DNA from: a bacterium
Lineage (GTDB): Bacteria; Armatimonadota; JACIXR01
NCBI GenBank assembly: GCA_014360495.1
Contig: JACIXR010000007.1
Span: 44,501 to 108,500, forward strand
DNA length: 64,000 bases
Reading direction: 5' to 3'
The position numbers and the translations under genes are program-made. Of this stretch, positions 7,283 through 35,553 are shown piece after piece. Numbering within the stretch: the first letter of the stretch is position 1; every line of letters starts with the position of its first letter. The notes beneath the pieces are model-generated. The model saw only the letters and a list, made by a program, of their open reading frames with translations. It had not been told where the DNA came from and did no database searches.

Positions 7283-7339
7283 CCTTTTTCCCTTGCTTAA
7301 TTTTTTAAATCTGTTTTACTATTATTGGAGGTGATTAAA

Positions 7340-10871: not shown

Positions 10872-12142
10872 TCCTAATCCTAACAAACTTTTCAACGAAA
10901 AGCCTCCACCCTCGGGTGCCGATTGAGGACCTGCGAGCTATTTCAAAACTTCTTTCCCCACTTGCCCAATGGGATTGGGGATTGGAAACTCTTAAGAGCT
11001 ATTCAGAACGCAACGATAACCCACTCCTTCTCATCCTTGTCGCAATAGCCCTGGGAGAAAGAGGAGACTATAATAACGCCGTATCCCTTTTAAAAAGAGC
11101 TGAATCACTCCTTCCCTCTGATTCCCTGCCTCCTCTCCTACAAAAACTATATGACCGAAAGGAAAATCTAGATAAGGAAACCGTTTCCCTTCTTGCCCTG
11201 GAGCTGAAAAACAGGCTAAGAGGATGGTTTAGGGATAAGCCTCTCGCTCGCCTTTACCGGCTTTCCGGCAACATCACTTCAGCGGAGAAATTGGAAGCCG
11301 CTTTAGAAAGACACAATCGCCCAATGATTTTGCGAATCGCCTTCCTCACATTTTATACCCTTCTTGTTTTCCTCGCAGGCATATTCCTCCTCATTTTTTA
11401 CTTATCAACAGCATCTAAAAGACTATCCTCCCACCCTGAACCACCACCTTCAATAAGTTGGGGATGGGCGATAGCCATCATCTTCATATTCATCATCACA
11501 CAAACGGCTATCGCCGTCATCCCTCTTTTCCTCGCTGCTCTCCCAATATACTCTACCCCTTTCTGGAGAAATTCCGTTCCCTTTTTCTACCTCCTATCCG
11601 AAATCACAGGTGGTCTTCTTATTTTACATCTAACCCTTAAACTCTTGTCCCAGAACCAGCTCAGCCTCAAGGATATCGGCTTTAAGATAGAAGGGCTGGG
11701 TAATTTCCTCTGGGGATTGGGTGGATTTTTATCCGCCTTTCCCCTCGTCGTGTCCACCTTTGCACTCTCCTATCTCCTACGCCTTTCCTCAATTAAAGGA
11801 AGAGAGGATATCCCCCTCCTTTTCCTAACCTCCTCCACTGGAGGCAAAATAGCTCTGTTTTTCCTCGTCTTTGCCCTCGCCCCAATTTTTGAGGAACTAA
11901 TGTTTAGGGGAATTCTCTATCCTTCCCTCCGCCGAGAGCTCGGCGTCACCCCAGCTATCGCTTTGAGCTCCTTCTTCTTCGCTTCAATTCACGCCAATGT
12001 CTCCCAGATTCTTCCCCTTATGGCTTTGGGAGCGCTCTTTAGCTTCCTCTATGAAAAGAAACGCTCCCTCATCCCATCCATCATTGCCCACGCCCTTTGG
12101 AATGCCCAAAATGCCCTTTTCCTCTTCCTTCTATATACCTGA
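10823..12142 (+). CDS. CPBP-family intramembrane metalloprotease (CAAX protease-like) with N-terminal TPR-like region
   Basis: 439 aa, multiple TM helices. CPBP motifs FEELMFRGILY and HALWN. Start ATG 10823 preceded by GAGGAGGAGGA, overlapping the divIVA 3' end by 49 nt. Confidence 0.7.
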   Translation: MRKGLPIAVITILSLLILILTNFSTKSLHPRVPIEDLRAISKLLSPLAQWDWGLETLKSYSERNDNPLLLILVAIALGERGDYNNAVSLLKRAESLLPSDSLPPLLQKLYDRKENLDKETVSLLALELKNRLRGWFRDKPLARLYRLSGNITSAEKLEAALERHNRPMILRIAFLTFYTLLVFLAGIFLLIFYLSTASKRLSSHPEPPPSISWGWAIAIIFIFIITQTAIAVIPLFLAALPIYSTPFWRNSVPFFYLLSEITGGLLILHLTLKLLSQNQLSLKDIGFKIEGLGNFLWGLGGFLSAFPLVVSTFALSYLLRLSSIKGREDIPLLFLTSSTGGKIALFFLVFALAPIFEELMFRGILYPSLRRELGVTPAIALSSFFFASIHANVSQILPLMALGALFSFLYEKKRSLIPSIIAHALWNAQNALFLFLLYT

Positions 12143-12173
12143 TATGTTAAACTTTTTTAGGAGAGTGATTTTT

Positions 12174-15100: not shown

Positions 15101-15965
15101 TGTCTGCTACAACAGTCCCTGGGCTGATTTCCTCGCCGATGGTATGGAGAAAGTACTTAAGAAATATGATATTGATGGCGTCTATCTTGATGGAACAGCA
15201 GTCCCGATGGGATGCGATAACACTCTCCATGGCTGTGGCTACTATGATGAGAAAGGAAATCTACATCCGACATTCCCAATCTTCGCCGTTAGAGATTTGA
15301 TGAAGCGAATCTATACAATCTGCTATAAACATCGCCCCAATGAACCATTCGTCAATGTCCACAATTCAACATACCTTGGTCCGCCGACCCTCGCCTTCGC
15401 CACCTCCTATTGGGATGGGGAACAGTTCGCAGGGGCTCAAAGAGACAACAAACATCCCCTTGAGCTTCTCCCTCTTGATTCATTCCGCTGCGAGTTTATG
15501 GGACACAATATAGGAGTTACCGCAGATTTCCTGGTATACGAGGGCAATCCCTTCACTTATCAAGAGGGACTCGCTATCGCTTTGATTCACGATGTATTTC
15601 CCCGCCCACCAGGATTGGGAAGCGAGGGATTCGAGCTTGCGAGCAAGATATGGAAAGCTTTTGAGAAGTTCGGGGCGACGGAATCCGAATGGATTCCCTA
15701 TTGGAAAGAGGATAGACCCGTTAAGACGAACAGCGAAGAGATATATGCGAGCACATACTTGAAGAAGGGGAAGGGAGCGATAATCGTCGTATCAAATTTG
15801 GGGAAGAAGACCCTACAAGCAGAGTTGAAATTGGATGAGAAGAGGCTCGGATTCCGCCCAAAGATAGGAGAAGAGATAATCACGGGAAACAAAATGGATA
15901 TCAAGGAAAATTCCCTCATCTTATCGCTCCCACCCTTCCGAGTGAGGGTAATATCTTTGAAGTGA
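12174..15965 (+). CDS. Giant secreted multidomain protein: CBM9/DOMON-like N-terminal domain, LamG/ConA-like domain, C-terminal glycoside-hydrolase-like TIM-barrel region
   Basis: 1263 aa from ATG 12174 (RBS AGGAGAGTG); the ORF track start 11997 is an upstream in-frame extension. Signal peptide MKKSCHLIYLLLLPIFS. CBM9-like DGKLSLNEWQNSGA...NIYIAFSC...WEDDAVEVFLSP. LamG-like ...WHHIALSWGDKIKIFVDGVE. C-terminal DIDGVYLDG region. Confidence 0.6.
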   Translation: MKKSCHLIYLLLLPIFSLSQPLFTIPFTSQPPKIDGKLSLNEWQNSGAVGILTPLGTKNLSPIPTIFYLSYDDSNIYIAFSCQSPSKPKALLRERDGNVWEDDAVEVFLSPAFPKYLQFIVNAENCIWDSEGKDGRWNGEWQHAVQITENGWEGEIAIPFSTLGAYPKAGDKWRFNLARDFSEPKTNPLTFSPCQFSLHEPNNFAILSFGTEAEAIRIYPLDLGNLFLPPSAPSSGNISIRGESSENLQLYVAVKKDGESRDFELSLSPNKEREILSLHLEPKERASIRLIGKNPQGKELVNMQMETERPPLLSVSLTRRFLTKGTIEVSLSSDVLAQEMRKIISTLLKEGREIIREEWVAENGKAKGEIKVANLPEGEYILQLRAYDEKGNLIASQEEKIAIPPKPSWLGSKAGRTDEVLPPWTPIKVKGDEAEVWGRKYKFSKTGLPSSIISKGKELLSEPIQWEIEAEGIRIDLKGSKSVVEQKPSVYTQIYSTPTYSCKATLEYDGMIRFDVSFHSPTGDSFILKKLRLFIPLKTAYAKYLHYSPGMWGSSSNSFGIKGDWNSPFRPLIFISDEEKGLCWFTESDENFRLSQPDRVIELKRQADKTFLIINIVDVPRETSSYNLTFGIQATPVRPVAVAWWLRERICHWGYYGMEKAPASGSLSITYPAEGNINPKQGSIQAWLRIDFDTQEEVKDEASRGSYNRNFLAIYLPNGDTASLYWNIDDRGMRFFVYDASQKSYPIILGAPAKLDKGWHHIALSWGDKIKIFVDGVETAEREFSGLFGKDVSLDEAKVVIGGGRCEMAISQFAIYNKPIESVSPANPLPIQNALLWDSYDKLVPGEGKTFPAIGKPGTINATINLEDSPYGKALCLWRKDLQGKLMLDVAREMGTRTIVFHEHWTDIQNYTETTHSEELRSLVDALHKRGMRLAVYFGYEMADIAPEYPFYSQECLRWRPGQWYYTRQPEQKDYGVCYNSPWADFLADGMEKVLKKYDIDGVYLDGTAVPMGCDNTLHGCGYYDEKGNLHPTFPIFAVRDLMKRIYTICYKHRPNEPFVNVHNSTYLGPPTLAFATSYWDGEQFAGAQRDNKHPLELLPLDSFRCEFMGHNIGVTADFLVYEGNPFTYQEGLAIALIHDVFPRPPGLGSEGFELASKIWKAFEKFGATESEWIPYWKEDRPVKTNSEEIYASTYLKKGKGAIIVVSNLGKKTLQAELKLDEKRLGFRPKIGEEIITGNKMDIKENSLILSLPPFRVRVISLK

Positions 15966-17490: not shown

Positions 17491-20400
17491 CTACTTCAAT
17501 CTATAGGCGAAAACTTCACATCCGCAAGCGAGAATCGCCTCGTCTCCCTCCCAATTCAATGGATAACTCCTCAACACCTTCCCCTCCTCATCTATTTCCT
17601 CAACGCTTTCCGCCCTCTTCACTTGCCAGGGAAGGGCGTTCCAATTGATTCTCACATTGAATTGCTGACTATCGGGAAGGGGCACGAGGAGAAGTGCATC
17701 TCCTTCCTTCGTCAATCTGAAAGCCCCATTCGTCCTTATACCCTGAAAATCTATCATCTTGCCTTGCGGGTTCAATCTCGCCAAAACGGGGTCCTCTTTC
17801 TCCTCCAATGGCGCCCAGCTTATAGAAGTTATCTCGCTCCCGCTTCCCTCCAGCTTTATCTTACCAAGCCTTATTCGCCTCGTTCCATCATCAAATCCCT
17901 CCAAACTCGCCCTCTCTCCCGTCTTTGGATCCCACATCCCTACCCTAATCTCGAACTCCTCGCCAGCCTTGAACTTCTCGGGAATGGAAAATCTCGCCGA
18001 GCTCCTAATCTTTCCCTCCCATTGGGTCGTGGGAATGGGAGGCTTATGGTCCGCTTGGAACATTATCTCGCCAGCTTTATCAACGAAATGAACGAAGATA
18101 TGCATATCTTTGGGCATCGGCTTTCCCGCCTCCCAAAGTAGCGTAAGCTCCGCCTCCCTATTTCCCACATATCTCAAAGATTCCAAGCTCACCTTCACCG
18201 GTGACCTCCCGCTGACTGGGCGGGCATTTACGAACAACATTGAGGGAGAACGAGACCAATCAACAATCACTCCCTCTTTCCTCTCAATTGCCATTTCCAC
18301 AACCCCACCTTCAACCGGCACCCTCGCATAAACCCCATATTCGGGTAGGATATGCCCCTCTACCTCCCAATCCTGCTTTCCCCTGTTAACCCATACCTCC
18401 CCTCCGTTGTTCCATCTGACGAATTGCCTGTGAATATCGCCATTTACAAATTGGACATCCTCAATATCTTTCAAGGCAAGAGCTCTCATTAAATCATGGA
18501 GAAGCCAATATTTGCGAACGACATCCCTTCCGAAGGGAGCAGGAACCATAGCGGGATGTCCAGTGAGGACTTCGGTAGCGATGTAATCGTCGCTATAGAT
18601 TCCGTGCAAGCGAGAATCAAGACCCGCTACATAGCGCCCCTCATAGCCTGCGCCGTGAAGAGCGAACCTGCTGTGATGCGCCATATCATACCAGGGAATT
18701 CTCTCCGCATCCCTGCATCGTATCGGCCAAACAGCCCAGCCATAATAGCCTGGCGGAGGTATATCAACCCTCAAATGATTCGTCTGTCCGCCATCAAGCC
18801 AACCAATCAACTGGTCGTGTCCGCTCTCGGAGATTTGGGGAGCGGAATCGCCGAGAAAATCCCTTATCCATGCGAAAGCCTTCCCCCATACCTCTTTTGT
18901 GTATAGCCTCGTATAGAACTTACCATCGTGAGTCCAATAATCATAAGGACAAATAGAGGACCAAACATCTATGAAATAGGCTGTGGGAGCGAAGCCCTCC
19001 TTTATGAGCTTGAGATTCCTCTCCAAGAAGGGGAAAACCTGGTCCGCTCGCCAGCGATAGGATTGCGCCTTTCTCCCTTCATTGAACCAAGCAGGAACGG
19101 GATTGCCCTCGTGGGTGAAAGCTATCTTCTTATAGGAAAAACCCTCCGCATCGGGGTAGAAGTCAATGTAATTATCGTGAGGAGCGAAGAGAACACCATG
19201 GCTCTTACAGGTATCCACGAGATAGAGGAAATCTTCAAAGGTGCCTAAATTGGGATTGGGTGGATAGATATCGGGGAGGCGATAATCATATCCCCACCTC
19301 TGCCAATTGTGCCAGACGACGATTGAATCAGTCAATCCGTAGCGGAAAGCTCTCTTCAAAGCTTCAGCGCTATCCCTATACATCCCTCCCCATAAATCAA
19401 AGACAAAGCGTCCAGCGAGCTTGTTAACTCCTTCCGCAGGTTTCAATCCGTTTATCTCCCGCCAGAGTTTCGCTCCCCGCCAGGCGGTTTCCGCGGGGAT
19501 GAGAGAAATGACTTGATTATGGGGAGTGTGGAGGGTATAGACCTTTCGCTCTGGTGAAACTTCAAGATTGCTCGGGACCGCATCTACCCCCTCAACCAAA
19601 GATAGACCGTTTTTGAAATCTAAGCCGACGAATGAAGTTGATAGCTGATGCCCATCAAACCATAGATTGAAAGCCTTAGGCTCGACGATGACATTTCCTA
19701 CTCCAGCATAGATTTTCTCCGCCTCCTCGCTCCATTCCCCAAGGGAGATATCCTCAATGTAAACCACGAGCCAGGGGCGTGCGGAAGGCACATTCTCAAG
19801 CCAGAACTTAACCCGTAGGGCTCCATTCTCCATCCAGATATCCGTTAATAGGTCGTAATCCCCCAGCCAATTGGAGAATGAATGCCTATAAATCAAATGC
19901 CCATCCTTCTGAGTTTTCTTTACCCCTTTAAACGAACTCGCCGAGCGCCAATCGCTAACATCATCTCCTAAGACCCTTACCCTAAACCCATTGAATAAAA
20001 GGCTCTTGGAATCGCTTATGAAACCGATGACGGAGTCAAGGATTCCCTTCTTCCCCTCCCAAATCCTCACCTCATAACCTCTTCCACCTATCTCAATACT
20101 TCCCAACTTAAGATATTTAGCATCAAGGGGTGGAGGGAAAACAGCCCTTTGTGGCGGTGTGCCAACCAATAAAGTTGGCTCAGCCCAATAAGAATCGTCG
20201 CAGGTAGTATCCTTTTTCGGTCCGGGATGGGATTCCAGCTGAAGGCGAATCGCCTCTCCAGCGTATTCGCTCAAATCCACCTCTCCTTCATCCCAAACCT
20301 TCGCCGATGTATGTCTCTCATAGACAATCTTGCCCTCCTCTCCATCCGGTGCGGAGAAGGGAAGGACCCTGACCCTGAATGTTACCCCGTCGCTTGGAGG

Positions 20401-21168
20401 CTCAGTGGGGAGGTTATCCCTTATCGCATTTGCGAAGCGGAGAACAATCGGCTTGCCTTTAGGCAATTTGATGGGAAACTCAATCATTATAGTCCCGGCG
20501 AGATTATTGAACCAAGGCGGATGCATCCCAATTACTTCCCTTTCATCTCCCCTTCTCACACGCTCCCTAACTCTACAGCTCGCCCTCGTCCTTGGGTCGG
20601 TTCCTGCCATCCCAACAGGGGAAATCTGGGGTTTCTCCCCGAACACCCTCAAAATCACCCTGTAAACGGGAAGACGCCAAAGGGCGAGAGCGCTATCTCT
20701 CTTCACCTCAAATGGTTTCCAGGGAATATTTATTTTCGGTTTTGGCGGATTGGGGATATTAGTCCTCAATATGAGGATTGGATGCGCCTCATATTCTCTC
20801 CCCTCTACTTTAAAACGAACAAATGCGTGCACGGGATAATGAGCATTGTAGGTTTGGGGGGAAGGCGCGATTTTGAATTCAAGTTTAGCATTGCCCTTGG
20901 AAGATACACTGAAGGAAGCCCTTTTAGGCTCCGCCTTCCAATCATCTATCAATCCAATCTCCACATCCCCTTTTATCTCGTTCTCCCCTTTGTTCTCCAA
21001 TACAACAGAGACCGAAAAGGGTTTCTCAATAGTCGTCAGCTCGGATGGACCTTCAATCCTTGCCGTTATTGGACCCGCTGTATCAATCGGTGGGTCAAAA
21101 GCGGCAGCTTGCACAGCTAAAAGTAGCAAGCTTAAAAATGCAAATAAATAAACCTGCATTCCTATCAC
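17491..21168 (-). CDS. Giant secreted glycoside-hydrolase-like multidomain protein
   Basis: 1225 aa. Signal peptide MIGMQVYLFAFLSLLLLAVQAAA. Central TIM-barrel-like region rich in aromatics (WHNWQRWGYDY...FAPHDNYIDFYPD...YFIDVW). Confidence 0.5.
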   Translation of the reverse strand: MIGMQVYLFAFLSLLLLAVQAAAFDPPIDTAGPITARIEGPSELTTIEKPFSVSVVLENKGENEIKGDVEIGLIDDWKAEPKRASFSVSSKGNAKLEFKIAPSPQTYNAHYPVHAFVRFKVEGREYEAHPILILRTNIPNPPKPKINIPWKPFEVKRDSALALWRLPVYRVILRVFGEKPQISPVGMAGTDPRTRASCRVRERVRRGDEREVIGMHPPWFNNLAGTIMIEFPIKLPKGKPIVLRFANAIRDNLPTEPPSDGVTFRVRVLPFSAPDGEEGKIVYERHTSAKVWDEGEVDLSEYAGEAIRLQLESHPGPKKDTTCDDSYWAEPTLLVGTPPQRAVFPPPLDAKYLKLGSIEIGGRGYEVRIWEGKKGILDSVIGFISDSKSLLFNGFRVRVLGDDVSDWRSASSFKGVKKTQKDGHLIYRHSFSNWLGDYDLLTDIWMENGALRVKFWLENVPSARPWLVVYIEDISLGEWSEEAEKIYAGVGNVIVEPKAFNLWFDGHQLSTSFVGLDFKNGLSLVEGVDAVPSNLEVSPERKVYTLHTPHNQVISLIPAETAWRGAKLWREINGLKPAEGVNKLAGRFVFDLWGGMYRDSAEALKRAFRYGLTDSIVVWHNWQRWGYDYRLPDIYPPNPNLGTFEDFLYLVDTCKSHGVLFAPHDNYIDFYPDAEGFSYKKIAFTHEGNPVPAWFNEGRKAQSYRWRADQVFPFLERNLKLIKEGFAPTAYFIDVWSSICPYDYWTHDGKFYTRLYTKEVWGKAFAWIRDFLGDSAPQISESGHDQLIGWLDGGQTNHLRVDIPPPGYYGWAVWPIRCRDAERIPWYDMAHHSRFALHGAGYEGRYVAGLDSRLHGIYSDDYIATEVLTGHPAMVPAPFGRDVVRKYWLLHDLMRALALKDIEDVQFVNGDIHRQFVRWNNGGEVWVNRGKQDWEVEGHILPEYGVYARVPVEGGVVEMAIERKEGVIVDWSRSPSMLFVNARPVSGRSPVKVSLESLRYVGNREAELTLLWEAGKPMPKDMHIFVHFVDKAGEIMFQADHKPPIPTTQWEGKIRSSARFSIPEKFKAGEEFEIRVGMWDPKTGERASLEGFDDGTRRIRLGKIKLEGSGSEITSISWAPLEEKEDPVLARLNPQGKMIDFQGIRTNGAFRLTKEGDALLLVPLPDSQQFNVRINWNALPWQVKRAESVEEIDEEGKVLRSYPLNWEGDEAILACGCEVFAYRLK

Positions 21169-23184: not shown

Positions 23185-24606
23185 TCAACGGAAGCGTAGG
23201 GAATAGATATCCGCATCAAGCATTACGAATCTCAACCTGATGATTTTACCCTCCAGTGAGCTCAAATCCTTCCTTCCCTTCCACCGCACAACGCCCTCTA
23301 TCTCGTCGCCATATATCGTTTCGCAATCCTTAAGGGAGAAACCGGGTATAGGCTCGCCTCTCTCGATTAGGATTTCCACAAGGATTTTGCCTCCCGCCGA
23401 TGTTGAGTAGTTAAGAACAAGCTCCTTACCCTTGAATTTTAACGGATGGGTGATAAATTCTCCCCCGGGATAGGAAGCGTGGACTGAAACGAAGCCATCC
23501 ATTCTAAGGGTGAAGCGCCTGAGACAATTTCCCTCTTGAGAATATCCCTCGCTGGAGTAAATAGAGAGCTCGTCGGGGGCATTGGCAAGCTTTGATTTCG
23601 TCACCAATATTCCCCAGGCGGTCATATTGTTCCGATTAACCCACCGCTGGGGTTGAGGTCCAGGGCGAATGAAAGCTTCAAGCCATCTATGCCAGTGAAT
23701 TCCATCCCTACTCGTCATAAAGACCCCATCTGATAACCCTCCGGGAATCTGCTTCTGACGCTCGGGGAAAAATCTCTTGGGAAAACCGAGGTAAATGTGG
23801 GGAGCGCGGAAATAGGGAATGATTGCGTTTGTATAAAGATGCTCTTTTGGAACGGAACCGTAATCAAGAAATTGTGGCTCGCTCCAATTGAGAAAATCCT
23901 GGGAGGTAGCAACCATTATGTCCCTATAGCCCTCGCGAAATGCCCTGTAATATGCGACATAACATTTCTTCACTTCGTCCCAAAAAGCAAGATTTTGGGA
24001 ATCAAAGGCACCCTTCATTAAGACGGGTTCATTTTTCATCAGCCTCCAATGGATTCCATCGGGAGATTGGAAAGCATAAAGTCCTCCCTCGCCCAATCCC
24101 AGAGCCTTATAACGAGCCTCAGGAGGGCAATTGGGGGTTTTATCCTTGAAAGGAGTGAAATTGTGGGTGCCTATTCCCTGCCAAACGATGTTGTTTTTCT
24201 TTGACCCGTTGAACTCAAACAAACCTAACTCGGGTTTAACCCAGTGAATTCCATCTTTGCTTTCAGCATAACAGGTGAACTCGGGATGCTTTTTCTTAGA
24301 AGTCTCCGGGTCATGGGAAGAACCTCTATAATACATGCGAAAAATGCCATCATCTTCAAATACGGTTACATATGCTGAGGTATTTCCTTCCCAGGGCTTA
24401 TCAAAGATTATGGCGACCTCCTGAGGTATTGGATGGTGTAGTTTGAGGGAGACTCCTTCCATCTTAGCTATGAGCCAATCGTCAACGAAGAGCTCCAAAT
24501 TTGAGCCTATATCTCTTACCGGTTCCTCATCTTGAGGCTTAGTAGCTCCCGCTAAGGAAAGGAACCAAAAGCAAGCAAGCATTATACTTTTTAAGGCATA
24601 TCCCAT
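23185..24606 (-). CDS. Secreted beta-propeller glycoside-hydrolase-like protein (GH43/GH117-like fold suspected)
   Basis: 473 aa. Signal peptide MGYALKSIMLACFWFLSLAGA. Repeated W/Y-rich blade-like segments (GIFRMYYRG, DGIHWRLM, DGIHWHRW). Confidence 0.45.
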   Translation of the reverse strand: MGYALKSIMLACFWFLSLAGATKPQDEEPVRDIGSNLELFVDDWLIAKMEGVSLKLHHPIPQEVAIIFDKPWEGNTSAYVTVFEDDGIFRMYYRGSSHDPETSKKKHPEFTCYAESKDGIHWVKPELGLFEFNGSKKNNIVWQGIGTHNFTPFKDKTPNCPPEARYKALGLGEGGLYAFQSPDGIHWRLMKNEPVLMKGAFDSQNLAFWDEVKKCYVAYYRAFREGYRDIMVATSQDFLNWSEPQFLDYGSVPKEHLYTNAIIPYFRAPHIYLGFPKRFFPERQKQIPGGLSDGVFMTSRDGIHWHRWLEAFIRPGPQPQRWVNRNNMTAWGILVTKSKLANAPDELSIYSSEGYSQEGNCLRRFTLRMDGFVSVHASYPGGEFITHPLKFKGKELVLNYSTSAGGKILVEILIERGEPIPGFSLKDCETIYGDEIEGVVRWKGRKDLSSLEGKIIRLRFVMLDADIYSLRFR

Positions 24607-26013: not shown

Positions 26014-26937
26014 TCATTTACCCTTCCCTATAATCTCAAAAAGGGTAATCTCAGGGCGGGAGCAGAAGCGAAGGGGTAGCCCTTCAGTTCCTATGCCGCG
26101 ATTCACATACAAAAGCGTCTCCCCAACCCTATACAGTCCCCTCTCATATTTTTTCCCATATTTTGAAAATGTCAACACTGCGCCATAAAACGGGATAGCA
26201 ACTTGACCGCCATGCGTATGTCCAGCGAGATAAAGGTCTATATCGTAAGCATTTAAATCCTCAATCAAATCGGGATAATGAAAGAGTAGAATAGTGAAAT
26301 CGCCACGAGCTCTCATAGCAAGGGCTTGGAGCAAAGCCGAATCATCGTTCACATCCAATCCCGCTATGTAAATATTATTGCCCGAAATGGAAATCCTTTC
26401 CCCTTCCCCCATCAGCATTTTAACTTTTAATCCCTTGAAAATGTCAACATTGGACGCAACCCCCGCATCCCAATTTCCCCTAACAGCATATATTCCGTAT
26501 TTTACTTTTAGCTCTCCAACCATCTTTCTAACCGCATCAAGAGCCTCTATTTTATTTATATAATCGCCGGTTAGGCATATTATATCGGGATTGAGAGCAT
26601 TCACAATTGAGGGAAGCCTCCTCTCATTCTTGTTCCATCCCTTGCTATGGATATCGGAAAGCTGAACAATGACTATTTTTGAACCAGTTTTGAGCTTCGG
26701 AGTTTCAATCCTAATTCTGCTCACATCTATCCAATATGGCTCAACGAAATAAGCATATAGGAGGCTTAGGATGAGAAGGGAAAATAAAAAGGTGAAAATC
26801 CAGCGAAGCCAGGGATTGGCAAATTGGCTCTCCTGCCTTTTCCCAATCCAAGCCCACAAAACCGCTATCTCAACCCCTATTATCGTGAGAACTCCGAACA
26901 AAACCAGGAAAAGCCTTATCCTCTCCTCAACTGACAA
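26014..26937 (-). CDS. Membrane-anchored metallophosphoesterase (calcineurin-like)
   Basis: 307 aa. Three N-terminal TM-like helices; motifs LSDIHS, GDYIN, GNWD and GHTHGGQ. Confidence 0.8.
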   Translation of the reverse strand: MSVEERIRLFLVLFGVLTIIGVEIAVLWAWIGKRQESQFANPWLRWIFTFLFSLLILSLLYAYFVEPYWIDVSRIRIETPKLKTGSKIVIVQLSDIHSKGWNKNERRLPSIVNALNPDIICLTGDYINKIEALDAVRKMVGELKVKYGIYAVRGNWDAGVASNVDIFKGLKVKMLMGEGERISISGNNIYIAGLDVNDDSALLQALAMRARGDFTILLFHYPDLIEDLNAYDIDLYLAGHTHGGQVAIPFYGAVLTFSKYGKKYERGLYRVGETLLYVNRGIGTEGLPLRFCSRPEITLFEIIGKGK

Positions 26938-26949
26938 ACCAGTTCTCCA

Positions 26950-29900
26950 TCATTCAAGTTTCATCAATTTATCCAGATAATTCCTTGCCTTTTTTAAATC
27001 GTCGCTTAGGAGAACGAGGGAGAATCTCTCAGCGGGAGAAATCTCTACCGCTATCTTACCTTCTTTCTGGCTTATTCTGGGAGAGGAAATCTTCCTCCAA
27101 TTCCCTTTCTCCACCTCCCCACTCTCGCCAATCAGTTTCGTCTCATCCCTTCGCAAAATCTCCACTTTCCCCTCCTCCAAGGGGATGAACAGAAGAGCGG
27201 AGGAGGAATCAATTCCCTTCCCATCAAGGGAGATAAGGATGAAATGCCCCTCGCCATTGACGATTTCCCTCCCCTTGATTTTAACCTTTCCTTGCCCTTC
27301 CACAGCGAGAGGTTCACCCTTTGATGATAAATGGATGAATCCCGTTGAACGCTCGGATAGCTCCATCTCCACTCCTTCCCATTTGTAACTTCCCGCTTTC
27401 CCATAGTTCACTAGGGTCAAAGTCCTCCCACCCTCAAGCGTAGGGATGGAAAAGGCAAGAAGCTCGGGATTCTCGGGCTCAACGGCTAAGCCCTCTATTT
27501 TTGCCATCCGCAAAACATCTTTATAAAGTCCATAAACCTCCCCCTTCATCTCCACAGGTTCCTCCACATAAAATATCTCCCCCTTCCCCAATCTAATTCT
27601 TGTAATGCCATTTTCTTCCTCCCCCTCAATCCCTTTAAGCCTTTCACCTTTCGCCTTCTTGAAGTTCTCATCTCTATCAATCTCTCCGCTAATGTAAAGC
27701 TTCCCTCCACCGCGAACGAAATCCATCAGGATGGTAAACACTTTATCGGAGATGGCGTAGGGGGAAGGATAGAGGATAAGTTCCGCATCTTTTAAGAGAG
27801 GGAGTTTGTCCTCGGTTATAATCTCAAAATCCACTTTCAATTGGAGAAGCGCCTTTATAGCTCTGCGGAAGGCATCGTGAAAGCGCATCCTCTGGCCTGA
27901 GAAAAATCCGATTTGAGGAGTGAGGAGATAAACTTTGGGCTTCTGGTATTTCGGCTGAATTGAACCGAAGAGAAGCGCCATAGCGCGCATAATATAGCCT
28001 GCCTGGCGAGGGGAGCGGTCGGCGTGAACGAGACCACAGGGGAAGATTCCCTCCATAGGGTCTCGCCAATGCCAACTGTTGAGGAAAGAAGCTCCTTCCC
28101 CAAACGCTATATGAGTTAAAAAGAGAAAGCGACGATTATATTCGTTGGTCGGCTCGTGTCCATATCCCTCAAAACCGGGATGGTTTTTTGCTCCGCACTC
28201 TCCAACGCTCAGCGGCTTCCCTAGCCACTGCATATCTATTTCCTTTAATTCCAGAGGGAAAACCGTTAAATCGCCATAGTAGTGGCGGTTGGTATAATCC
28301 ATATCCTCAGAGAGCAAAATCGGGTCGTGGATGACATCTCCCCAGCCAAATCCCTGCAAACAGCCAACTGTTATGAGAAGCCAAGGGTCGGATTTCTTCA
28401 TCGCTTCATAAAGCCTATCATACCAATTCTTCTCCCAGCGAAGATAGAATTCCGCTGTATCCCTTGCCCTCACATCGTTAACATCGGATGAGAGGGATTT
28501 TACCGCTATCTCCTCAAAGCTCTTTTCCTCCAATTTATCTCCCCACACCTCTTTCAATTTTTCAAAACTTCCATACTTTTCCCTCAGATATCTTTGAAAC
28601 TCCATTCTATGCTGGGGTGAATCCTCCCTCCGCAGAGAGGGTTCATTGCAGAGGTCAATGGTTATAAGCTTGACCCTCTTATACCTCTCAGCTATCTCCC
28701 GTGCGGTTTTCTCCTCTTCCTCCAAAGCGTTCCTATCAAGGGAGTTCCAGAGGTTAGGAGAAGCGAAGAAAATTATGTTGTGCTTTTGGGCGAGATAGAC
28801 AAGAGCGTCATTAGCCCTCTTTGCCCTCTCTGTTTCCCTCTGAGTGAAAGGCCAGAAGACACGGGATATGTGGAAGCCCCAGTCCTCCATTAGCTGGAAA
28901 TCCCTTTCCCAAGCAAGCGGAGAACAGGCGGTCACGCTATCAATCTGCCCCCACCACTCCTGTGCCCCCACTATGAATTTTGGCTTACCGCCGAAAAATA
29001 AATATGAATCTTTTATAAGCGGTCTTTTGCCCTTCATAAGATTTTCCTGCCAAATGACGAAAGCGTCCTCCATTTCGTCTATCTTGTTCCCATTCTCCCA
29101 AAGCTCGCATCCAAGATAACAGAAATCCCTCTTTTCCTCTTTGGAAATGGGATATTCTTGGGATATCTGCCTGATTTCTCCACTCTTAACCTCCACATCC
29201 ATTTCCCTCACCCATTCTTCTTTTCCTTCCTCAAACCCCAATTTAAATCTCACCCTGAATTTCCCATCATTTCTTCCCATATTCGCTATCCAAACTCTCA
29301 AATTAGCCGTTTCACCCGGACGATAACAAGCCCATTCCGTTCCCGCTCCATATAGATAAGTCTTCTTTATCAAGCTCTCCGCTAAACGAGGGAGGTAGGG
29401 AAGAAGGGCGTCCTTTGTGAACAGATTCTTGTTGTCCACACCGAATATAGCCCAGCTTGAGCCCTTATAATAGCCATCGTAGTTATGGATTATGCTGGCA
29501 AGATATCCCCTGAAGCGTCCCTGGGAATCAAAGGCATAAAGGAGCGGTAGAATGCGAGCGACATTGGGACCGAAGCCGTGCCCCGCTCCCTTGCCAATTG
29601 GTCCCACAGCAGCGAAGCCAGTGAATGGTCCCTTTAAAGCGAAATCGCTAGGGATAATCATCTGCAGGGAAGCTGGTTTAGCTAAATCGGCGTTCTCAAG
29701 GGGATGGGAAGGGTCGAAAACCCCTATCTGCTCGGGATTTGGCCACATCGCATCCTGAAGCCTTCCAAAGCGGGTGTTAATTACCTCCTGAAAGAGGATT
29801 TCCTCACCCCTCAAATCTGCTAAAATATTTATGTCCTTTATAAAAAATTTGTAAGCTTTCCCCTCTTGTTCGGTCTCCACGGAGATGCCGAAGGAAAGAT

Positions 29901-31305
29901 GGTCGGCATTCTCCGGGCGGAAATGGTCCCCCGCTATACCTCTTCCCACTGAGGGATTATCTGGCCAGTATTGAAGGTCGGCTATTGATATGTAATATTC
30001 CTTCCATTCTGATGTAAGCTCAACCCCAGAGCGCCAGCGAGAGCCATCCTTTTCCTGCCACTCAAAAAACAGCTTTTTAACCCCTTCTCCCTTCGCCTTG
30101 AAATTAGCGATTATGAAATTTGAAGGAAAGGCAGAAGGATTGACCGGTGGTGAGGAAATCGTCACCCAACCCCTCAAATCATCCACATCTACTTCCAAGA
30201 AGTTCTCGCCCTCTTCATCTTTATCCAATTTGAAGGAGGCTTCTCCCGCTGGGAAGCCCAAAGTCCATTTCTCATCTTGTGATAGGGAGAAAAGGGGATG
30301 TTTTTCCCCCTTGGGGATGGGGAGTTTTTCCTTCTCATACCAATTGCCGTCAACGAAGAATAGGGGCTTATCAAAGGCATATCCTCCAATAGTTATCATA
30401 CTTCCGCCCTCGCTCAAGAACTGCCTCACTGCTTGGGTTGCCTTGGCGGGGAAGTATGGACCATAGGGGAGGATTAAGAGGTCGAAATTTTTGGCGGAGA
30501 GAAGCGAGGGGTTTGAAAGCTCCTCAGCACCAAGAAGATAGGGGGAAAAGCCAGCCTCTTTTAAAGAGGAATATAATTCTTCAATGGAGGGAGTTCCATC
30601 AGTTTTGGGGAAATTAATTTCAGAAAAAATCGCTACATCCTTACCGATTTCCCTTTTAGATTTTATCCTCTCCATAAACTCACTCCCTTTCTCTTCCATT
30701 TTCCTAAGCTTTTCGCTGATTTCCTCATCGTAGATTGAAGGCGAATACTCACTCGCTTCATCTCCCATCTCCAATTGAACATCGTCAAACCAAGCGGTGC
30801 CATAGCCGTGAATCAGAAGGATAACCGCCACCTTGTTCGCTCCTCTGGGAACCACCGCCGTCGTCTCTATCCGTTCCCAGTCGCTATCTCCAATAATTTT
30901 CTTCTCGCTATCCTTATAGGAAATCCTTGTATCACCTGAGAAGAAACTGATTGAGCAATAAGCCCCTACTCCACCTCCTACGCCACTCGTCTTAACGAAG
31001 GCACTGAAGGTCAAATGCTGATTTGAGGCACGAATGGGAAATTCCTGATAGGCTGAATACCAACCAAGGGGCGCATCCTTAGGGATGGAAATGCGAAGTG
31101 AAAATCTTCCCGAGTGAAAAACGCTTGCATCAGTAACCGCTTCGCCGTTAGATGGTAGATTGAAACGCCAATTAGTGGGAGGAACTCCTTTTAGAGGGAA
31201 TTCAAAGCTTGAGTTAGGGAGCAGATTCAATGGCAAGCAATGAAACGAAGCAACAACCAACAATAGGGCAATAAACCCAAAATTTGCCCTCATCAACCTC
31301 GCCAT
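26950..31305 (-). CDS. Giant secreted glycoside hydrolase (clan GH-A catalytic domain) with N-terminal CBM4/9-like module
   Basis: 1451 aa. Signal peptide; N-terminal CBM-like ...FSGRFSLRI...AWFDDVQLE. GH42-like DLLILPYGPYF...GGSMITIGG. Clan GH-A NEP motif (IDLCNEPS). Confidence 0.6.
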   Translation of the reverse strand: MARLMRANFGFIALLLVVASFHCLPLNLLPNSSFEFPLKGVPPTNWRFNLPSNGEAVTDASVFHSGRFSLRISIPKDAPLGWYSAYQEFPIRASNQHLTFSAFVKTSGVGGGVGAYCSISFFSGDTRISYKDSEKKIIGDSDWERIETTAVVPRGANKVAVILLIHGYGTAWFDDVQLEMGDEASEYSPSIYDEEISEKLRKMEEKGSEFMERIKSKREIGKDVAIFSEINFPKTDGTPSIEELYSSLKEAGFSPYLLGAEELSNPSLLSAKNFDLLILPYGPYFPAKATQAVRQFLSEGGSMITIGGYAFDKPLFFVDGNWYEKEKLPIPKGEKHPLFSLSQDEKWTLGFPAGEASFKLDKDEEGENFLEVDVDDLRGWVTISSPPVNPSAFPSNFIIANFKAKGEGVKKLFFEWQEKDGSRWRSGVELTSEWKEYYISIADLQYWPDNPSVGRGIAGDHFRPENADHLSFGISVETEQEGKAYKFFIKDINILADLRGEEILFQEVINTRFGRLQDAMWPNPEQIGVFDPSHPLENADLAKPASLQMIIPSDFALKGPFTGFAAVGPIGKGAGHGFGPNVARILPLLYAFDSQGRFRGYLASIIHNYDGYYKGSSWAIFGVDNKNLFTKDALLPYLPRLAESLIKKTYLYGAGTEWACYRPGETANLRVWIANMGRNDGKFRVRFKLGFEEGKEEWVREMDVEVKSGEIRQISQEYPISKEEKRDFCYLGCELWENGNKIDEMEDAFVIWQENLMKGKRPLIKDSYLFFGGKPKFIVGAQEWWGQIDSVTACSPLAWERDFQLMEDWGFHISRVFWPFTQRETERAKRANDALVYLAQKHNIIFFASPNLWNSLDRNALEEEEKTAREIAERYKRVKLITIDLCNEPSLRREDSPQHRMEFQRYLREKYGSFEKLKEVWGDKLEEKSFEEIAVKSLSSDVNDVRARDTAEFYLRWEKNWYDRLYEAMKKSDPWLLITVGCLQGFGWGDVIHDPILLSEDMDYTNRHYYGDLTVFPLELKEIDMQWLGKPLSVGECGAKNHPGFEGYGHEPTNEYNRRFLFLTHIAFGEGASFLNSWHWRDPMEGIFPCGLVHADRSPRQAGYIMRAMALLFGSIQPKYQKPKVYLLTPQIGFFSGQRMRFHDAFRRAIKALLQLKVDFEIITEDKLPLLKDAELILYPSPYAISDKVFTILMDFVRGGGKLYISGEIDRDENFKKAKGERLKGIEGEEENGITRIRLGKGEIFYVEEPVEMKGEVYGLYKDVLRMAKIEGLAVEPENPELLAFSIPTLEGGRTLTLVNYGKAGSYKWEGVEMELSERSTGFIHLSSKGEPLAVEGQGKVKIKGREIVNGEGHFILISLDGKGIDSSSALLFIPLEEGKVEILRRDETKLIGESGEVEKGNWRKISSPRISQKEGKIAVEISPAERFSLVLLSDDLKKARNYLDKLMKLE

Positions 31306-31334: not shown

Positions 31335-31580
31335 CTATACTCCCTTTGAGATGATGAGCATGAGGGCTTTGTAGAGCCCGAAGCCGAAGAAGAGGAGCCC
31401 GAAACCCATTAAGATGATAGGTAGAACGATGCTGGGAGCGGTTACACGACTGCGAGGGAAGCCGTATACTTGCACGCGCAATATCAAAATCAAAACCAAG
31501 AGCACAAGACCTAGCGCCAATATCGTGAAACCTTGTGCAGCTATGATAAAAGCCTGTAGATAATTCATGTGGTTAAACAC
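31335..31580 (-). CDS. Small two-TM membrane protein, hypothetical
   Basis: 81 aa with two hydrophobic helices, sitting between GH genes on the same strand. Confidence 0.4.
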   Translation of the reverse strand: MFNHMNYLQAFIIAAQGFTILALGLVLLVLILILRVQVYGFPRSRVTAPSIVLPIILMGFGLLFFGFGLYKALMLIISKGV

Positions 31581-31652: not shown

Positions 31653-34025
31653 TCATTTCGCTTCCTTCAACTTTAAAACTGTAAGGGAATAAGGAGGCAG
31701 GCTGATTGTAAATCTATTGCTAACTCCCTCTATAATCTTGCTTATCGGTGCAACACGCCTCGGCTGGGAGAAGCTGTTCTCCTCATCGGGGGAATTGCCC
31801 GTGAGGATTACCATTTCCCCTTGCTTCTCCAGCCTCCCGCCGTTGAGTTCGAGCTCGCCGTTCTGCCACTTATCGCTCGTGTTCACTATTTTGATGAAGA
31901 CCTTCCCGCTATTTGTATCTTTTGTGGCGGAAGCAAGGACAGGAGAAGGCATTCTCTCCTCTATCTCGTGTATTAGCTTGCCATCCAGATAGCAACTTAT
32001 CTTATTGCCCTTTATCTCTATTTTGATGTCATACCATCGCCCAGTTTCCACGCTTCCCTCCACCGTCTCGCTGACAATGCTCTTGCCTCCACCCACACAT
32101 CTCTCTATCGCATGGCGGGTATTCCCCCAACCACCTATATTCCACCAATACCAGTTGTTATCATCCTTCACAGCGAACATAATGAGGAATCCCTCAGCAC
32201 CACCCAACTTCCTCGCCTTTAGGCTTATCGTATAATCGCTCCAATTGACATCTCCATAAACAATTCTTACATCCGTTTCAAGGGATTTCTGTTGGAGAGA
32301 ATAATCCCTCACTTCCCAATCGCCGCGCACGACCCTCCATCCTTCCAATCCCTTTGAGAAATCTGCTCCAAATATCAATTTATCCTCTTTATACACCTTC
32401 AAATCCTTGAATTCCGCTTGGGTAAGCCAAGTTCCCAAGCCAATTGCTCCCTTTAGAACGGGCTTCTCATCCTCCATTCGCACCTCAACGGGAAGAACAA
32501 CATCTCCCCTATTTTCGCTGAACAACATCTGAACATAATAGGAGGGAGTGCCGTAGACATTCGCGTTATCAAAACAGATTAAGTCAGGATTCCATCTTCT
32601 GTCGTTCACATTGACGAAAAGGGGAGCATAAGAAGCCATGATAACAATATCGCTGTTTCTCTCCAATCCAGTCATAAAGGCAGCCTCGCCTATGGCTGCC
32701 CTCAAATTCCCCGTCCCGCAGTTTTGGGTTACCGCATACTCTCCGACGAAAATGCTCGGTCCATTGCGGTCGTATTTATCATAACGAGTGGAATTAGCTA
32801 TGAACCACTCAGGGGAATTATAATAATGCTCATCAACGATTTCCATAGGAGCGCTTTTAACTGGCACATTCGCGATTAAAGTCAATTTAGGATACTTCTC
32901 TTTTATGGCTTTATAAAATAAAGCATATCTTTCCTCATAAGCTGGTCCCCAATTCTCGTTTCCGATTTCAACGAAGCGTAGCTTGAAGGGATGGGGATGC
33001 CCGTTCTTCTCCCGTAGAGCCCCCCATTTGCTCGTGGTCGGACCTATGGCATATTCAATAGCCGCAAGGGCATCCTCAATCCATTCATCCATCTTCTCAA
33101 GGGGAGCAATTTCCTGATGGGACATCCCACAATTGACAGCGAGTATCGGCTCCGCTCCCAGCGCCTCGCATAAAAGCAGATATTCGTGAAGCCCGAGCCC
33201 CTCCGTCGTCCTATAACCCCAGAGATTCCATCTTCCCGGTCTTTCCGCTATATCCCCGATGGTATTCCGCCAGCGTAACGCATGGTCAAGCCGCTCTCCC
33301 TCAACGAAACAACCGCCAGGAAATCTGACGAAGGACGGCTTCAAATCCGCAAGCATCTGCATAAGGTCGGAACGAAAGGGCAGACCCTTCCACCTATCCC
33401 TTGGCATAAGGGAAACTACATCCAGCCAGAGAGTTCCCAGAGAAGTCAAATAAATGACCAGGCGTGCGGAAGGGAAGGAATCCTCAGCGTGAAGGACAAC
33501 CTGAAACTTCTTCCAACTTGAATCAATCCCCTGAATGCGGGACTGAGCGTAGACTATTCCGCTTGGATGTTCCAAACTTACAAGTATATCGCCCCTATAA
33601 TTCCCATTACAGCGAGCATAAAGGGATAAATCGTAGAGCTTCCCTTTTTCTATCTTTATTCCCCAAAAGCCGGAGTTCGCAACACCTAGCCGTCCTCTCC
33701 CCAATTTTTTAACCGAAATCTTTAAGGAGCGAGGATTAGAGGGATTAAGGGGATGAGAGGAATCAACGGATATTTCTCCTTCTGCTTCCCCCTCCTGAAC
33801 TATATACCAACCAATCGGGGCATCTCCTTCTTCAAAATCCCTGTTTCTCACCAATTCAGCATAGAGCCCACCTTCCCCTGCGTGATTGATCTCCTCAAAG
33901 AAGATACCCCAGAGAAGAGGGCTCACTTTATGCAGCGGTTTCTGTATATCAACCGAGATAACCGCTTCTCCTGCGAAAAGGGATAAGCCGATTATCAGCA
34001 GGAATATAAAGACAAGCTCTCCCAT
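31653..34025 (-). CDS. Alpha-L-arabinofuranosidase, GH51 family, with extra C-terminal domain
   Basis: 790 aa. GH51 N-terminal signature LWGIFFEEINHAGEGGLYAELVRNRDFEE; VRFPGGCFVEG; catalytic-region EIGNENWG. Confidence 0.85.
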   Translation of the reverse strand: MGELVFIFLLIIGLSLFAGEAVISVDIQKPLHKVSPLLWGIFFEEINHAGEGGLYAELVRNRDFEEGDAPIGWYIVQEGEAEGEISVDSSHPLNPSNPRSLKISVKKLGRGRLGVANSGFWGIKIEKGKLYDLSLYARCNGNYRGDILVSLEHPSGIVYAQSRIQGIDSSWKKFQVVLHAEDSFPSARLVIYLTSLGTLWLDVVSLMPRDRWKGLPFRSDLMQMLADLKPSFVRFPGGCFVEGERLDHALRWRNTIGDIAERPGRWNLWGYRTTEGLGLHEYLLLCEALGAEPILAVNCGMSHQEIAPLEKMDEWIEDALAAIEYAIGPTTSKWGALREKNGHPHPFKLRFVEIGNENWGPAYEERYALFYKAIKEKYPKLTLIANVPVKSAPMEIVDEHYYNSPEWFIANSTRYDKYDRNGPSIFVGEYAVTQNCGTGNLRAAIGEAAFMTGLERNSDIVIMASYAPLFVNVNDRRWNPDLICFDNANVYGTPSYYVQMLFSENRGDVVLPVEVRMEDEKPVLKGAIGLGTWLTQAEFKDLKVYKEDKLIFGADFSKGLEGWRVVRGDWEVRDYSLQQKSLETDVRIVYGDVNWSDYTISLKARKLGGAEGFLIMFAVKDDNNWYWWNIGGWGNTRHAIERCVGGGKSIVSETVEGSVETGRWYDIKIEIKGNKISCYLDGKLIHEIEERMPSPVLASATKDTNSGKVFIKIVNTSDKWQNGELELNGGRLEKQGEMVILTGNSPDEENSFSQPRRVAPISKIIEGVSNRFTISLPPYSLTVLKLKEAK

Positions 34026-34164: not shown

Positions 34165-35553
34165 ATGGATATGAGCAAAAATTTATTTGCTAACATTCTT
34201 CTCTCTTTGGCTGTAGCATTATCAGCCCAAAAAGTGAAACAAGCGAACCACCTTACGCCGTATCCAAGAAATCCCTTCATTATCAAGATAGATTTCCCTC
34301 CTGTTGAGGATAGCGGCGGTGGCATTATCGTGGCGGATTTGGATGGAGATGGGAAAATGGATTATCTAATCACACGCAAAGGCTATGTAGCAGCCTATCG
34401 CTGGGACGGCGGAAAGCTCTGGGTTAAGGAAGTGGATATCCAAGTAGGTGGACCGGCGGAAAAAGTAGGATTGCCAGGTCATCACGGTCCCGGTGTGCAG
34501 GCAGGAGATATTGATGGGGATAAAAAGACGGAAGTTCTCTTTCTCACAAGGGATAGCACTCTCCATATATTGGACGGAGTTAGCGGGAAGGGAAAATACG
34601 CGATAAAGATTCCCAACCCCGAGGGAACGGATAGATGGGAGCACCTTGTGCTGGTGAATTTGAGAGGCAAAGGGGATAAAGATTTAGTACTACAAGCCAC
34701 AAATAACAAAGGATACAGGATGGGGCGCTATGTATCAGCTTTTTCCTTGGACGATTTGCTTAAAGGAAGGGTAAAACCTATTTGGCAAAGAAATGATTTC
34801 CTCGCTTGTGCACACAACGGACTTAGAGCGGTTGATTTAGATGGCGACGGAAGAGACGAAATCATAAGCGGCTCCATTTTATCACCAGATGGTAAAGAGC
34901 TATACAGATTAGAGGTGCGAGGTCATCTTGATAGCGTTTATTTTGGGGATGTCCGCCCCGATATACCCGGCTTAGAGGTAGTTGCGCTTGAAGAAGGAGG
35001 AAATCGAACCTTCCTTTACAATGCTAAGGGCTTGATATGGGTAAAGGACTATAAAGGGCAAGAGCCTCAAAACGCAGCTATCGGTGAATTTGACCCAAAG
35101 CGTCCCGGCTTGGAGATTTGGAATCGCAGTAGATACAACACTTATCAGAAGCCATGGGTATATGATGCGCTAGGGAATATAATCGCCTCTTACGAATTAA
35201 GCGAAGTAGCTCCCCCGGATTGGCCGAAAGAGGGAATAGAGGTAATCAATGCGATTCATTGGGATGGTAGCGGTCGCCAACTTTTATGTGCTATGGACAG
35301 GCAAAAGCCGGGTGATGTTGCAATTATAGACCCACTAACTGGTAAGTTCATAGCTCGCTTCAAGGAAAAAGCCGACCGTTTATATGTAGCTGATGTTGCT
35401 GGCGATTGGAGGGAGGAAGTTATAGTCCTTTCGGGAAAGGAGCTTCATATCTATCAAAATACCGCCCCTAATCCCAATCTCAAGAGGGAACGCCTCTGGA
35501 AGAATCAATGGTATAGACGAAGCAAAGCGGTCTGGAACTACTATTCGCCTTGA
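34165..35553 (+). CDS. FG-GAP/VCBS repeat beta-propeller protein, secreted
   Basis: 462 aa. Signal peptide; repeated Ca-binding-like DLDGDGKMD, GDIDGDKKTE and DLDGDGRDE loops. Confidence 0.65.
   Translation: MDMSKNLFANILLSLAVALSAQKVKQANHLTPYPRNPFIIKIDFPPVEDSGGGIIVADLDGDGKMDYLITRKGYVAAYRWDGGKLWVKEVDIQVGGPAEKVGLPGHHGPGVQAGDIDGDKKTEVLFLTRDSTLHILDGVSGKGKYAIKIPNPEGTDRWEHLVLVNLRGKGDKDLVLQATNNKGYRMGRYVSAFSLDDLLKGRVKPIWQRNDFLACAHNGLRAVDLDGDGRDEIISGSILSPDGKELYRLEVRGHLDSVYFGDVRPDIPGLEVVALEEGGNRTFLYNAKGLIWVKDYKGQEPQNAAIGEFDPKRPGLEIWNRSRYNTYQKPWVYDALGNIIASYELSEVAPPDWPKEGIEVINAIHWDGSGRQLLCAMDRQKPGDVAIIDPLTGKFIARFKEKADRLYVADVAGDWREEVIVLSGKELHIYQNTAPNPNLKRERLWKNQWYRRSKAVWNYYSP

Follow-up and report, generated by a model that had tools for sequence, protein, structure and literature searches.

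We analysed a 64,000-nucleotide stretch of genomic DNA from a bacterium of the Armatimonadota (GTDB lineage JACIXR01; GenBank assembly GCA_014360495.1, contig JACIXR010000007.1, positions 44,501 to 108,500 of the forward strand), hereafter the window, and focused on a single open reading frame (ORF) of 1451 amino acids (aa) on its minus strand, at 26950..31305, referred to as the target. The ORF listing gives an ATG start at 31305 and a TGA stop at 26950-26952, and the gene is clearly real. An original prediction, made by a reader of the letters alone, had described a 1451-aa secreted enzyme here, and both its coordinates and its LCNEPS motif were reproduced exactly. We propose that the target encodes a secreted glycoside hydrolase (GH) with a single active site, most likely a retaining clan GH-A beta-glycosidase of an uncharacterised clade lying between GH42 and GH5; we put the probability of this reading at about 0.8. 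The structure was predicted with AlphaFold as two overlapping pieces, aa 1-760 (predicted local distance difference test (pLDDT) score 89.3, predicted template modelling (pTM) score 0.84) and aa 640-1451 (pLDDT 92.7, pTM 0.93). The models, profile searches and fold searches define one catalytic domain and eight accessory modules, with the following features along the protein.

31234..31305, minus strand (aa 1-24): signal-peptide-like leader MARLMRANFGFIALLLVVASFHCL, read directly from the sequence
30751..31227, minus strand (aa 27-185): beta-sandwich of carbohydrate-binding module (CBM) type CBM4/9/22 (NLLPNSSFE ... GTAWFDDVQLE)
30649..30750, minus strand (aa 186-219): linker of low conservation, formed by a long helix (aa 191-214 by DSSP in the model)
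30286..30648, minus strand (aa 220-340): GATase1/ThuA-like alpha/beta domain, part 1, the second domain of GH42 'domain B' type in the protein
29806..30285, minus strand (aa 341-500): CBM11-like beta-sandwich inserted in the GATase1-like domain
29362..29805, minus strand (aa 501-648): beta-rich conserved module (NTRFG..., GHGFGPN, RxPLL..D..GRxRG)
29041..29361, minus strand (aa 649-755): immunoglobulin (Ig)-like beta-sandwich directly before the barrel, in a GH2-/dextranase-like arrangement
27961..29040, minus strand (aa 756-1115): (beta/alpha)8 clan GH-A catalytic barrel, strands 4 and 5 being separated by a helical sub-domain
28639..28647, minus strand: N887-E888-P889 (in LCNEPS), predicted acid/base glutamate and preceding asparagine, codons verified
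28198..28200, minus strand: E1036 (in GECG), predicted nucleophile on strand 7, codon verified
27481..27960, minus strand (aa 1116-1275): GH42 'trimerisation'-type alpha/beta domain (domain B), from Pfam, profile and model
27001..27480, minus strand (aa 1276-1435): C-terminal beta-sandwich of GH42 domain C type, enlarged, from model, profile and Foldseek
26950..27000, minus strand (aa 1436-1451 and stop): short C-terminal helix (DSSP helix at model residues 798-809)

The barrel consists of eight alternating strands and helices spanning aa 778-1077 (strands at aa 778-784, 813-817, 845-849, 881-887, 977-982, 1005-1009, 1032-1037 and 1072-1077 in the model), and its top fold matches are all clan GH-A barrels. 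N887-E888 stands directly after strand 4 (aa 881-887) and E1036 within the strand at aa 1032-1037. HMMER alignments pair E888 with the GH42 acid/base residue ('vdicNEp' against 'WHVSNEYG' and 'WHVNNEYG'). For the nucleophile region a single sequence gave nothing useful, and we used a 13-sequence profile of aa 950-1070, which aligned E1036 with the glutamate of GH5 'VTEWG' (endoglucanases 8bqa and 4m1r) and of GH128 'ISEF' (6ub2), at marginal E-values of 0.007-0.06; over strands 5-7 'RHYYG...GE[CF]G' falls in register with 'LHFYAG...VTEWG' and 'NLHWYG...ISEF'. GH5 enzymes conserve R, H, N, E, H, Y, E and W on strands 2, 3, 4, 4, 6, 6, 7 and 8, and seven of these eight are present in the target; the strand-3 histidine is not evident, position 851 being N, H or L across the clade. 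The -1 subsite set is complete, with R815 (strand 2), N887/E888, H1008/Y1010 (strand 6), E1036 and W1078 (strand 8), and matches the residues conserved among GH5 exo-mannosidases (Arg58, Asn155, Glu156, His240, Glu281 and Trp317 in Op5Man5 numbering; PMC8233224).

Conservation was assessed on 152 relatives with a barrel match longer than 250 aa, aligned to a hidden Markov model of the barrel. E1036 is kept in 151 of them, W1078 in 149, W961 in 142, R830 in 139 and H1042 in 131, and E1036 is invariant in alignment A1. Of 27 close homologues 24 retain the N-E pair, as do about 98 of the 152 wider relatives, including all canonical-type members; the others have G-D. The assignment to clan GH-A, first made from the NEP motif, is thus borne out by the barrel fold and by a full catalytic residue set, both members of the glutamate pair being present at the ends of strands 4 and 7. 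In the mechanism that we propose, E888, which follows N887 where strand 4 ends, would act as general acid/base and E1036 on strand 7 as nucleophile, while R815, H1008/Y1010 and W1078 would form the scaffold of the -1 subsite. We conclude that the protein has a single catalytic centre, which by its clan membership would follow the standard retaining double-displacement mechanism.

We then consider the family to which this barrel belongs. PF02449 (GH42) was the only Pfam family above cutoff (29.5 bits against 21), the match covering profile positions 111-240 of 376, while PF00150 (GH5) remained below threshold for the target (12.1 bits against 23.5). Among 27 homologues, PF02449 matched 15 at E<=0.01, the GH42 trimerisation model GH42M (PF08532) matched 10 and PF00150 matched seven at E<=0.01; wider relatives are borderline on both PF02449 and PF00150 (20-31 bits), a few reaching 24-31 bits on PF00150. 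A single-sequence search of PDB sequences returned chance-level sortase matches only. The full-length family profile matched GH42 3tts at E 3.2e-18 in two stretches, which correspond to barrel strands 4-6 and to domains B/C, and the barrel-only profile reached E 8.5e-10 to GH42 over strands 4-6 only, including the helical sub-domain typical of GH42 and GH164. In the region of domain B the profile aligned with residues 451-668 of GH42 3tts, 467-670 of 5dfa and 426-636 of GH164 6t5o. With the GH164 enzyme Bs164 no sequence match was found in the barrel, only in domains B/C (E 1e-7, profile positions 1158-1366). Both GH42 features downstream of the barrel are present: the trimerisation domain, already named in the original prediction, on which fold and profile alignment agree although the single-sequence Pfam score falls below cutoff, and the C-terminal beta-sandwich, an all-beta region with strands at model residues 643-795 (aa 1282-1434).

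At the level of fold, Foldseek aligned 700-750 columns with PDB entries, that is the whole barrel, alpha/beta and sandwich unit, at 12-15% identity. E-values were 1.1e-25 for the GH42 beta-galactosidase 8ibt, 1.2e-25 for the beta-1,2-glucosyltransferase IaSGT (7vkz) and 5e-21 for GH164 7omi; other matches were the GH42 alpha-L-arabinopyranosidase 5xb7 and the GlmA exo-beta-D-glucosaminidases 6jow and 5gsl. IaSGT (7VKW) and GlmA (5GSL, 6JOW), which we take to be prokaryotic GH35 three-domain enzymes of the CAZy classification, match the whole unit (E 1e-25 to 4e-22, 740-880 columns) and are reached by the profile in domains B/C, at 12-14% identity, with no sequence match in the barrel and with different N-terminal regions. 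By structure the barrel is nearest to GH5 mannanases, Op5Man5, GH164 and GH42, with identities of 12-18% throughout. In GH2 enzymes 309-335 residues align with the fold, and the succession of Ig-like domain and barrel suggests a GH2-like arrangement, but the target has no GH2 sequence signature and the sugar-binding N-terminal and the C-terminal domains of GH2 (3CMG, 6NCW, 6D50) are unmatched.

GH42 enzymes are typically cytoplasmic homotrimers. Those compared here (3TTS, 1KWG, 4UCF, 8IBT, 5XB7) share with the target the barrel and helical sub-domain, the trimerisation domain and the C-terminal beta-sandwich, and are the closest by sequence; identity is nevertheless 12-16%, with the likeness confined to strands 4-6 and domains B/C, and the target differs by its GH5-like nucleophile motif (GECG/GEFG), about 750 extra N-terminal residues and a secretion leader. 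The unit of barrel and domain B recurs in GH42, GH164 and an unusual GH5 enzyme, which have 12-17% mutual identity and differing specificity and are all exo-acting trimers, the C-terminal sandwich being present in GH42 and GH164 and absent in Op5Man5 (PMC7105311, PMC8233224). Op5Man5, a GH5 exo-beta-1,4-mannosidase of GH42-type architecture from Opitutaceae TAV5 (PDB 7BOB), has 594 aa and, unlike the target, lacks a signal peptide, a C-terminal sandwich and N-terminal modules (PMC8233224); it is recovered only weakly and only in domain B by the full-length profile (7bob, E 0.0022), and not by the barrel-only profile. The GH164 beta-mannosidase Bs164 (6T5O; PMC7105311) shows high fold likeness at 12-13% identity and lacks the 750 N-terminal residues; the residues with which it binds mannose are Arg-rich. 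The target is a deep further branch of this structural group of GH42, GH164 and the unusual GH5 enzyme, standing between GH42 and GH5 and filed in neither. It possibly represents a new clan GH-A subfamily, as the original prediction had suggested.

Several observations weigh against our reading of the target as a retaining clan GH-A beta-glycosidase between GH42 and GH5. The PF02449 match spans only 130 of the 376 profile positions, GH42M scores 21.7 bits at aa 1151-1216, below its 25.8 cutoff, and a scan of NCBIfam matched no family model. The E-values that align E1036 with GH5 and GH128 are marginal, the clade is biochemically uncharacterised, and the indicators of specificity disagree, the structure pointing to beta-mannosides, the sequence to GH42 and the genomic context to arabinose-rich plant glycans. 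In the reading that we retain, the barrel is part of a GH42-type unit, made of the barrel with its helical sub-domain, the alpha/beta 'trimerisation' domain and the beta-sandwich; N-terminal to this unit lie the Ig-like domain and modules without catalytic function that total about 620 aa. This enzyme would be expected to act in the exo mode on the non-reducing end of a beta-linked glycan, since every characterised enzyme with the three-domain unit is exo-acting. As an object it is ordinary, a multi-modular clan GH-A glycosidase that is secreted; its clade is uncharacterised and has an unusual architecture.

The secreted character of the protein, claimed from the start, is supported by its signal-peptide-like N-terminus, which appears as a lone helix of low pLDDT in the AlphaFold model. 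Nearly all homologues have equivalent hydrophobic leaders, often with A-x-A at the end, and directly after the leader the first domain begins with a conserved NL[LV]xNSSFE. Lipoprotein anchoring was considered and rejected because the 'SFHC' of the leader is not a lipobox, no canonical lipobox being present. In the Pfam scan of the protein the C-terminal tail gave no match, and it contains no recognisable sorting or anchor domain.

The N-terminal half is made of binding-type and alpha/beta modules. Pfam matches among the 27 homologues were to CBM_4_9 (11/27), ABC_transp_aux (10/27), DUF4350 (5/27) and CBM_11 (2/27). The CBM4/9-like module of the original prediction holds at the level of fold only, Pfam CBM_4_9 (PF02018) matching those 11 homologues but not the target itself; likewise the inserted beta-sandwich is CBM11-like in fold, with sequence matches to CBM11 (PF03425) in those two homologues. 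These CBM-like modules would presumably target carbohydrate. The helix linker (aa 186-219) has no column conserved at 90% or above. The first part of the GATase1-like domain keeps DLLILPYG...GG...GGYAFD across homologues, and the most conserved peptide of the family, YWxDNPSVGRG (aa 446-456), lies in the CBM11-like insert. We infer that the module at aa 501-648 completes the split GATase1-like domain; in the wider clade it is always linked to the barrel. Columns conserved at 90% or above make up 14% and 12% of the two GATase1-like parts, against 8% of the barrel. Over aa 220-340 and 501-648 no invariant or almost invariant column holds a cysteine or histidine; the elbow reads GGYAFD, and the domain lacks the Cys-His-Glu triad of class I glutamine amidotransferases, so that it does not hold an amidotransferase-type active site.

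A database search gave 57 matches at E <= 0.001, of which about 50 extend over most of their length, with identities from 90% down to 23%. The size and domain combination had at first been noted as unusual; the architecture is no one-off and is conserved in about 50 full-length homologues. When 1.84 billion cluster representatives were scanned with residues 252-1451, 280 matched at E<=1e-30, 698 at E<=1e-10 and 1084 at E<=1e-3; we define the clade as the roughly 280 clusters at 50% identity with E<=1e-30, which come mainly from bacteria of the Planctomycetes-Verrucomicrobia-Chlamydiae (PVC) group and Armatimonadota. Many wider-clade proteins share only the region from about residue 508 onward (GATase1-like part 2, Ig, barrel and domain B) and have different N-termini, while some relatives of about 1030 aa keep the N-terminal GATase1-like region and seem too short for full C-terminal domains. 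Distribution was searched in species-representative genomes with a profile of 13 closer sequences. Full-length relatives occur in unclassified metagenome-assembled genomes (MAGs; 57-73% identity), Thermoguttaceae, Kiritimatiellia, Victivallales/Lentisphaerae, Verrucomicrobiota, Capsulimonadaceae and other Armatimonadota, and in one cultured isolate, Oligosphaera ethanolica DSM 24202 (locus L013). Some homologues are named beta-galactosidase by NCBI, these names being Pfam-driven, and our literature search found no description of the clade. A sub-clade of about 48 of the 152 relatives (e.g. P0043, P0044, P0046) has 'G-D' (motif NGD) for the acid/base 'N-E', with co-varying changes R815->E, H1008->G and H1079->C and with E1036 and W1078 retained; these proteins may use an aspartate acid/base or a different chemistry.

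The genes surrounding the target in the window are the following.

7325-8827, plus strand: DUF2961 protein
11997-15965, plus strand: 1322-aa protein with CBM9-like, GH123_N, Laminin_G_3 and GHL6 domains
17491-21168, minus strand: DUF5696 protein, 1225 aa
21208-23181, minus strand: 657-aa ORF without Pfam match, adjoining the DUF5696 gene
23185-24606, minus strand: 473-aa ORF without Pfam family, 2.4 kb downstream of the target
26014-26937, minus strand: membrane-anchored calcineurin-like metallophosphoesterase, starting 12 nt after the target stop with no terminator between
31335-31568, minus strand: 77-aa ORF, 29 nt upstream of the target, for a small hydrophobic protein of membrane type
31653-34025, minus strand: GH51-type alpha-L-arabinofuranosidase, 790 aa (ASD1_dom and Alpha-L-AF_C) with an N-terminal CBM_4_9
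34165-35553, plus strand: FG-GAP/rhamnogalacturonan-lyase-11 C-terminal-domain protein, 462 aa, divergent, upstream of the GH51 gene

The locus of the 90% homologue P0001 (JGI sample 3300025546) is fully syntenic with the window, in the order ValRS, PolX, RNR, CobO, GH51-like, small ORF, target, metallophosphoesterase and pseudopilin. Adjacency of target and metallophosphoesterase is seen in loci L085 and L005, and co-transcription of the two genes is probable, confined to this lineage; L085, a syntenic locus, has an annotated 78-aa gene where the window has the 77-aa ORF. Beyond close relatives the neighbourhood is unconserved: Pfam scans of 20 flanking genes and eight annotated loci revealed variable surroundings rich in carbohydrate-active enzymes. 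A conserved operon was rejected, an all-against-all BLAST of the ORFs from 15 loci finding no neighbour in more than three of them. Within about 10 kb, arabinose-active enzymes are encoded in the window (GH51), next to P0023 (GH43) and near P0025 (two GH127), acetyl-xylan-esterase-like genes recur around target homologues and N-methyl/DUF1559 pseudopilins around both the target and its homologues. DUF6259/DUF5696 proteins lie within 10 kb of target homologues whose identity to the target is 27-85%, in four lineages, besides the window at L004, L086 and L087; in the literature library searched, no paper mentions DUF6259 or DUF5696. Homologues of the 473-aa ORF stand directly beside a target homologue in two other lineages (L006 12300-13697, L019 5943-7526). 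A three-sequence profile of this protein matched GH130 structures only, namely beta-1,2-mannoside phosphorylases and putative glycosidases, with a best E of 7.7e-5 and alignments that span one or two propeller blades. The protein may be a beta-propeller enzyme of GH130-like type, though a very divergent one. The rhamnogalacturonan-lyase-11-type neighbour adds a pectin-related flavour to the locus.

Leading candidates for the specificity of the target are beta-mannosides and beta-galactosides/alpha-L-arabinopyranosides, the remainder lying on other beta-glycosides. Tentatively, and at well below even odds, the enzyme may be a beta-mannosidase or beta-mannanase acting on mannan, glucomannan, the N-glycan core or beta-1,2-mannan, as its structural neighbours favour beta-mannoside enzymes and the GH130-like 473-aa neighbour leans the same way. 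We consider it somewhat unlikely that it is a divergent GH42-type beta-galactosidase/alpha-L-arabinopyranosidase trimming the galactan or arabinogalactan side chains of pectin. GH42 is indeed the sole Pfam family above cutoff and the best sequence-profile match in PDB, helical sub-domain included, some homologues bear the beta-galactosidase label, and the GH51-like and rhamnogalacturonan-lyase-11-like genes of the window, like the GH43 and GH127 genes near P0023 and P0025, point to arabinose and pectin. However, the identity to GH42 structures is low and the barrel match is restricted to strands 4-6, the homologue names are not experimental, and the neighbourhoods are not conserved; moreover the scaffold does not fix specificity, because the known enzymes built on GH42-type scaffolds include mannosidases, glucosaminidases and transglycosylases.

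The second copy of the domain B fold raises a structural proposal. In the trimers of GH42, GH164 and Op5Man5, domain B contacts the barrel of the neighbouring subunit and helps shape its active site (PMC7105311, PMC8233224), so that a second copy in cis could take over this role. The N-terminal GATase1-like copy would then pack on the barrel of its own chain and replace the contact with a neighbouring subunit, making the target a monomeric, self-completed enzyme of a new clan GH-A family with a new substrate specificity; taken as a whole we regard this proposal as unlikely.

That the target is mainly a transglycosylase, like the beta-1,2-glucosyltransferase IaSGT which shares its scaffold, appears very improbable, even if the IaSGT structures (7vkz, 7vkw, 7x87) are tied for best Foldseek match. 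Equally hard to credit is a bifunctional or multifunctional enzyme, as the original prediction had envisaged, in which the N-terminal stretch of roughly 750 residues would hide another catalytic domain. Conservation is higher in the GATase1-like domain than in the barrel and some proteins of GATase1 fold are enzymes, but this reading is unsupported because the other approximately 1100 aa contain only non-catalytic folds, the GATase1-like domain having no conserved cysteine or histidine. A catalytically dead carbohydrate-binding or structural protein with a glycosidase fold, which the many binding-type modules and the uncharacterised state of the clade would allow, is scarcely plausible given the complete and strongly conserved clan GH-A set, with E1036, W1078 and, in canonical-type members, N-E retained.

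If the target is the clan GH-A beta-glycosidase that we propose, it stands for an untouched family-level branch of the clan, of about 280 clusters, which bridges GH42 and GH5 both by sequence and by structure and is concentrated in PVC bacteria and Armatimonadota, known polysaccharide degraders. Characterising one member would give function to several hundred genes now called 'hypothetical' or mis-named 'beta-galactosidase' and could add a family or subfamily to CAZy. Such work would further put to the test whether a trimerisation domain duplicated within one chain can stand in for oligomerisation. The value for enzyme discovery is useful but incremental, and no general concept is changed.

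Some further observations concern the neighbouring genes and individual loci. The 790-aa GH51 protein has a 3-keto-disaccharide-hydrolase-like (concanavalin-type) domain, apparently inserted in its C-terminal domain. The 1322-aa ORF shares about 146 nt with the Rce1-like ORF before it (10823-12142), and for this reason its true start probably lies further downstream; a GH123-like gene also neighbours the target homologue in L012. DUF2961 has the fold of CAZy family GH172; besides the DUF2961 protein of the window, another is encoded two genes upstream of the target homologue in a Verrucomicrobiota MAG (L019 4413-5939). In an Armatimonadetes MAG a second, 1204-aa GH42-like paralogue (GH42 and GH42M; L018 11190-14804, plus strand) lies two genes downstream of the homologue, with a CBM9-like protein between them. 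In Oligosphaera ethanolica DSM 24202 (L013) the homologue is located between two opposite-strand 493-aa ORFs (5388-6869, minus strand, and 12799-14280, plus strand) which gave an identical Pfam result, DDE_Tnp_1_assoc with the same score; this suggests a composite-transposon-like arrangement and possible horizontal mobility.

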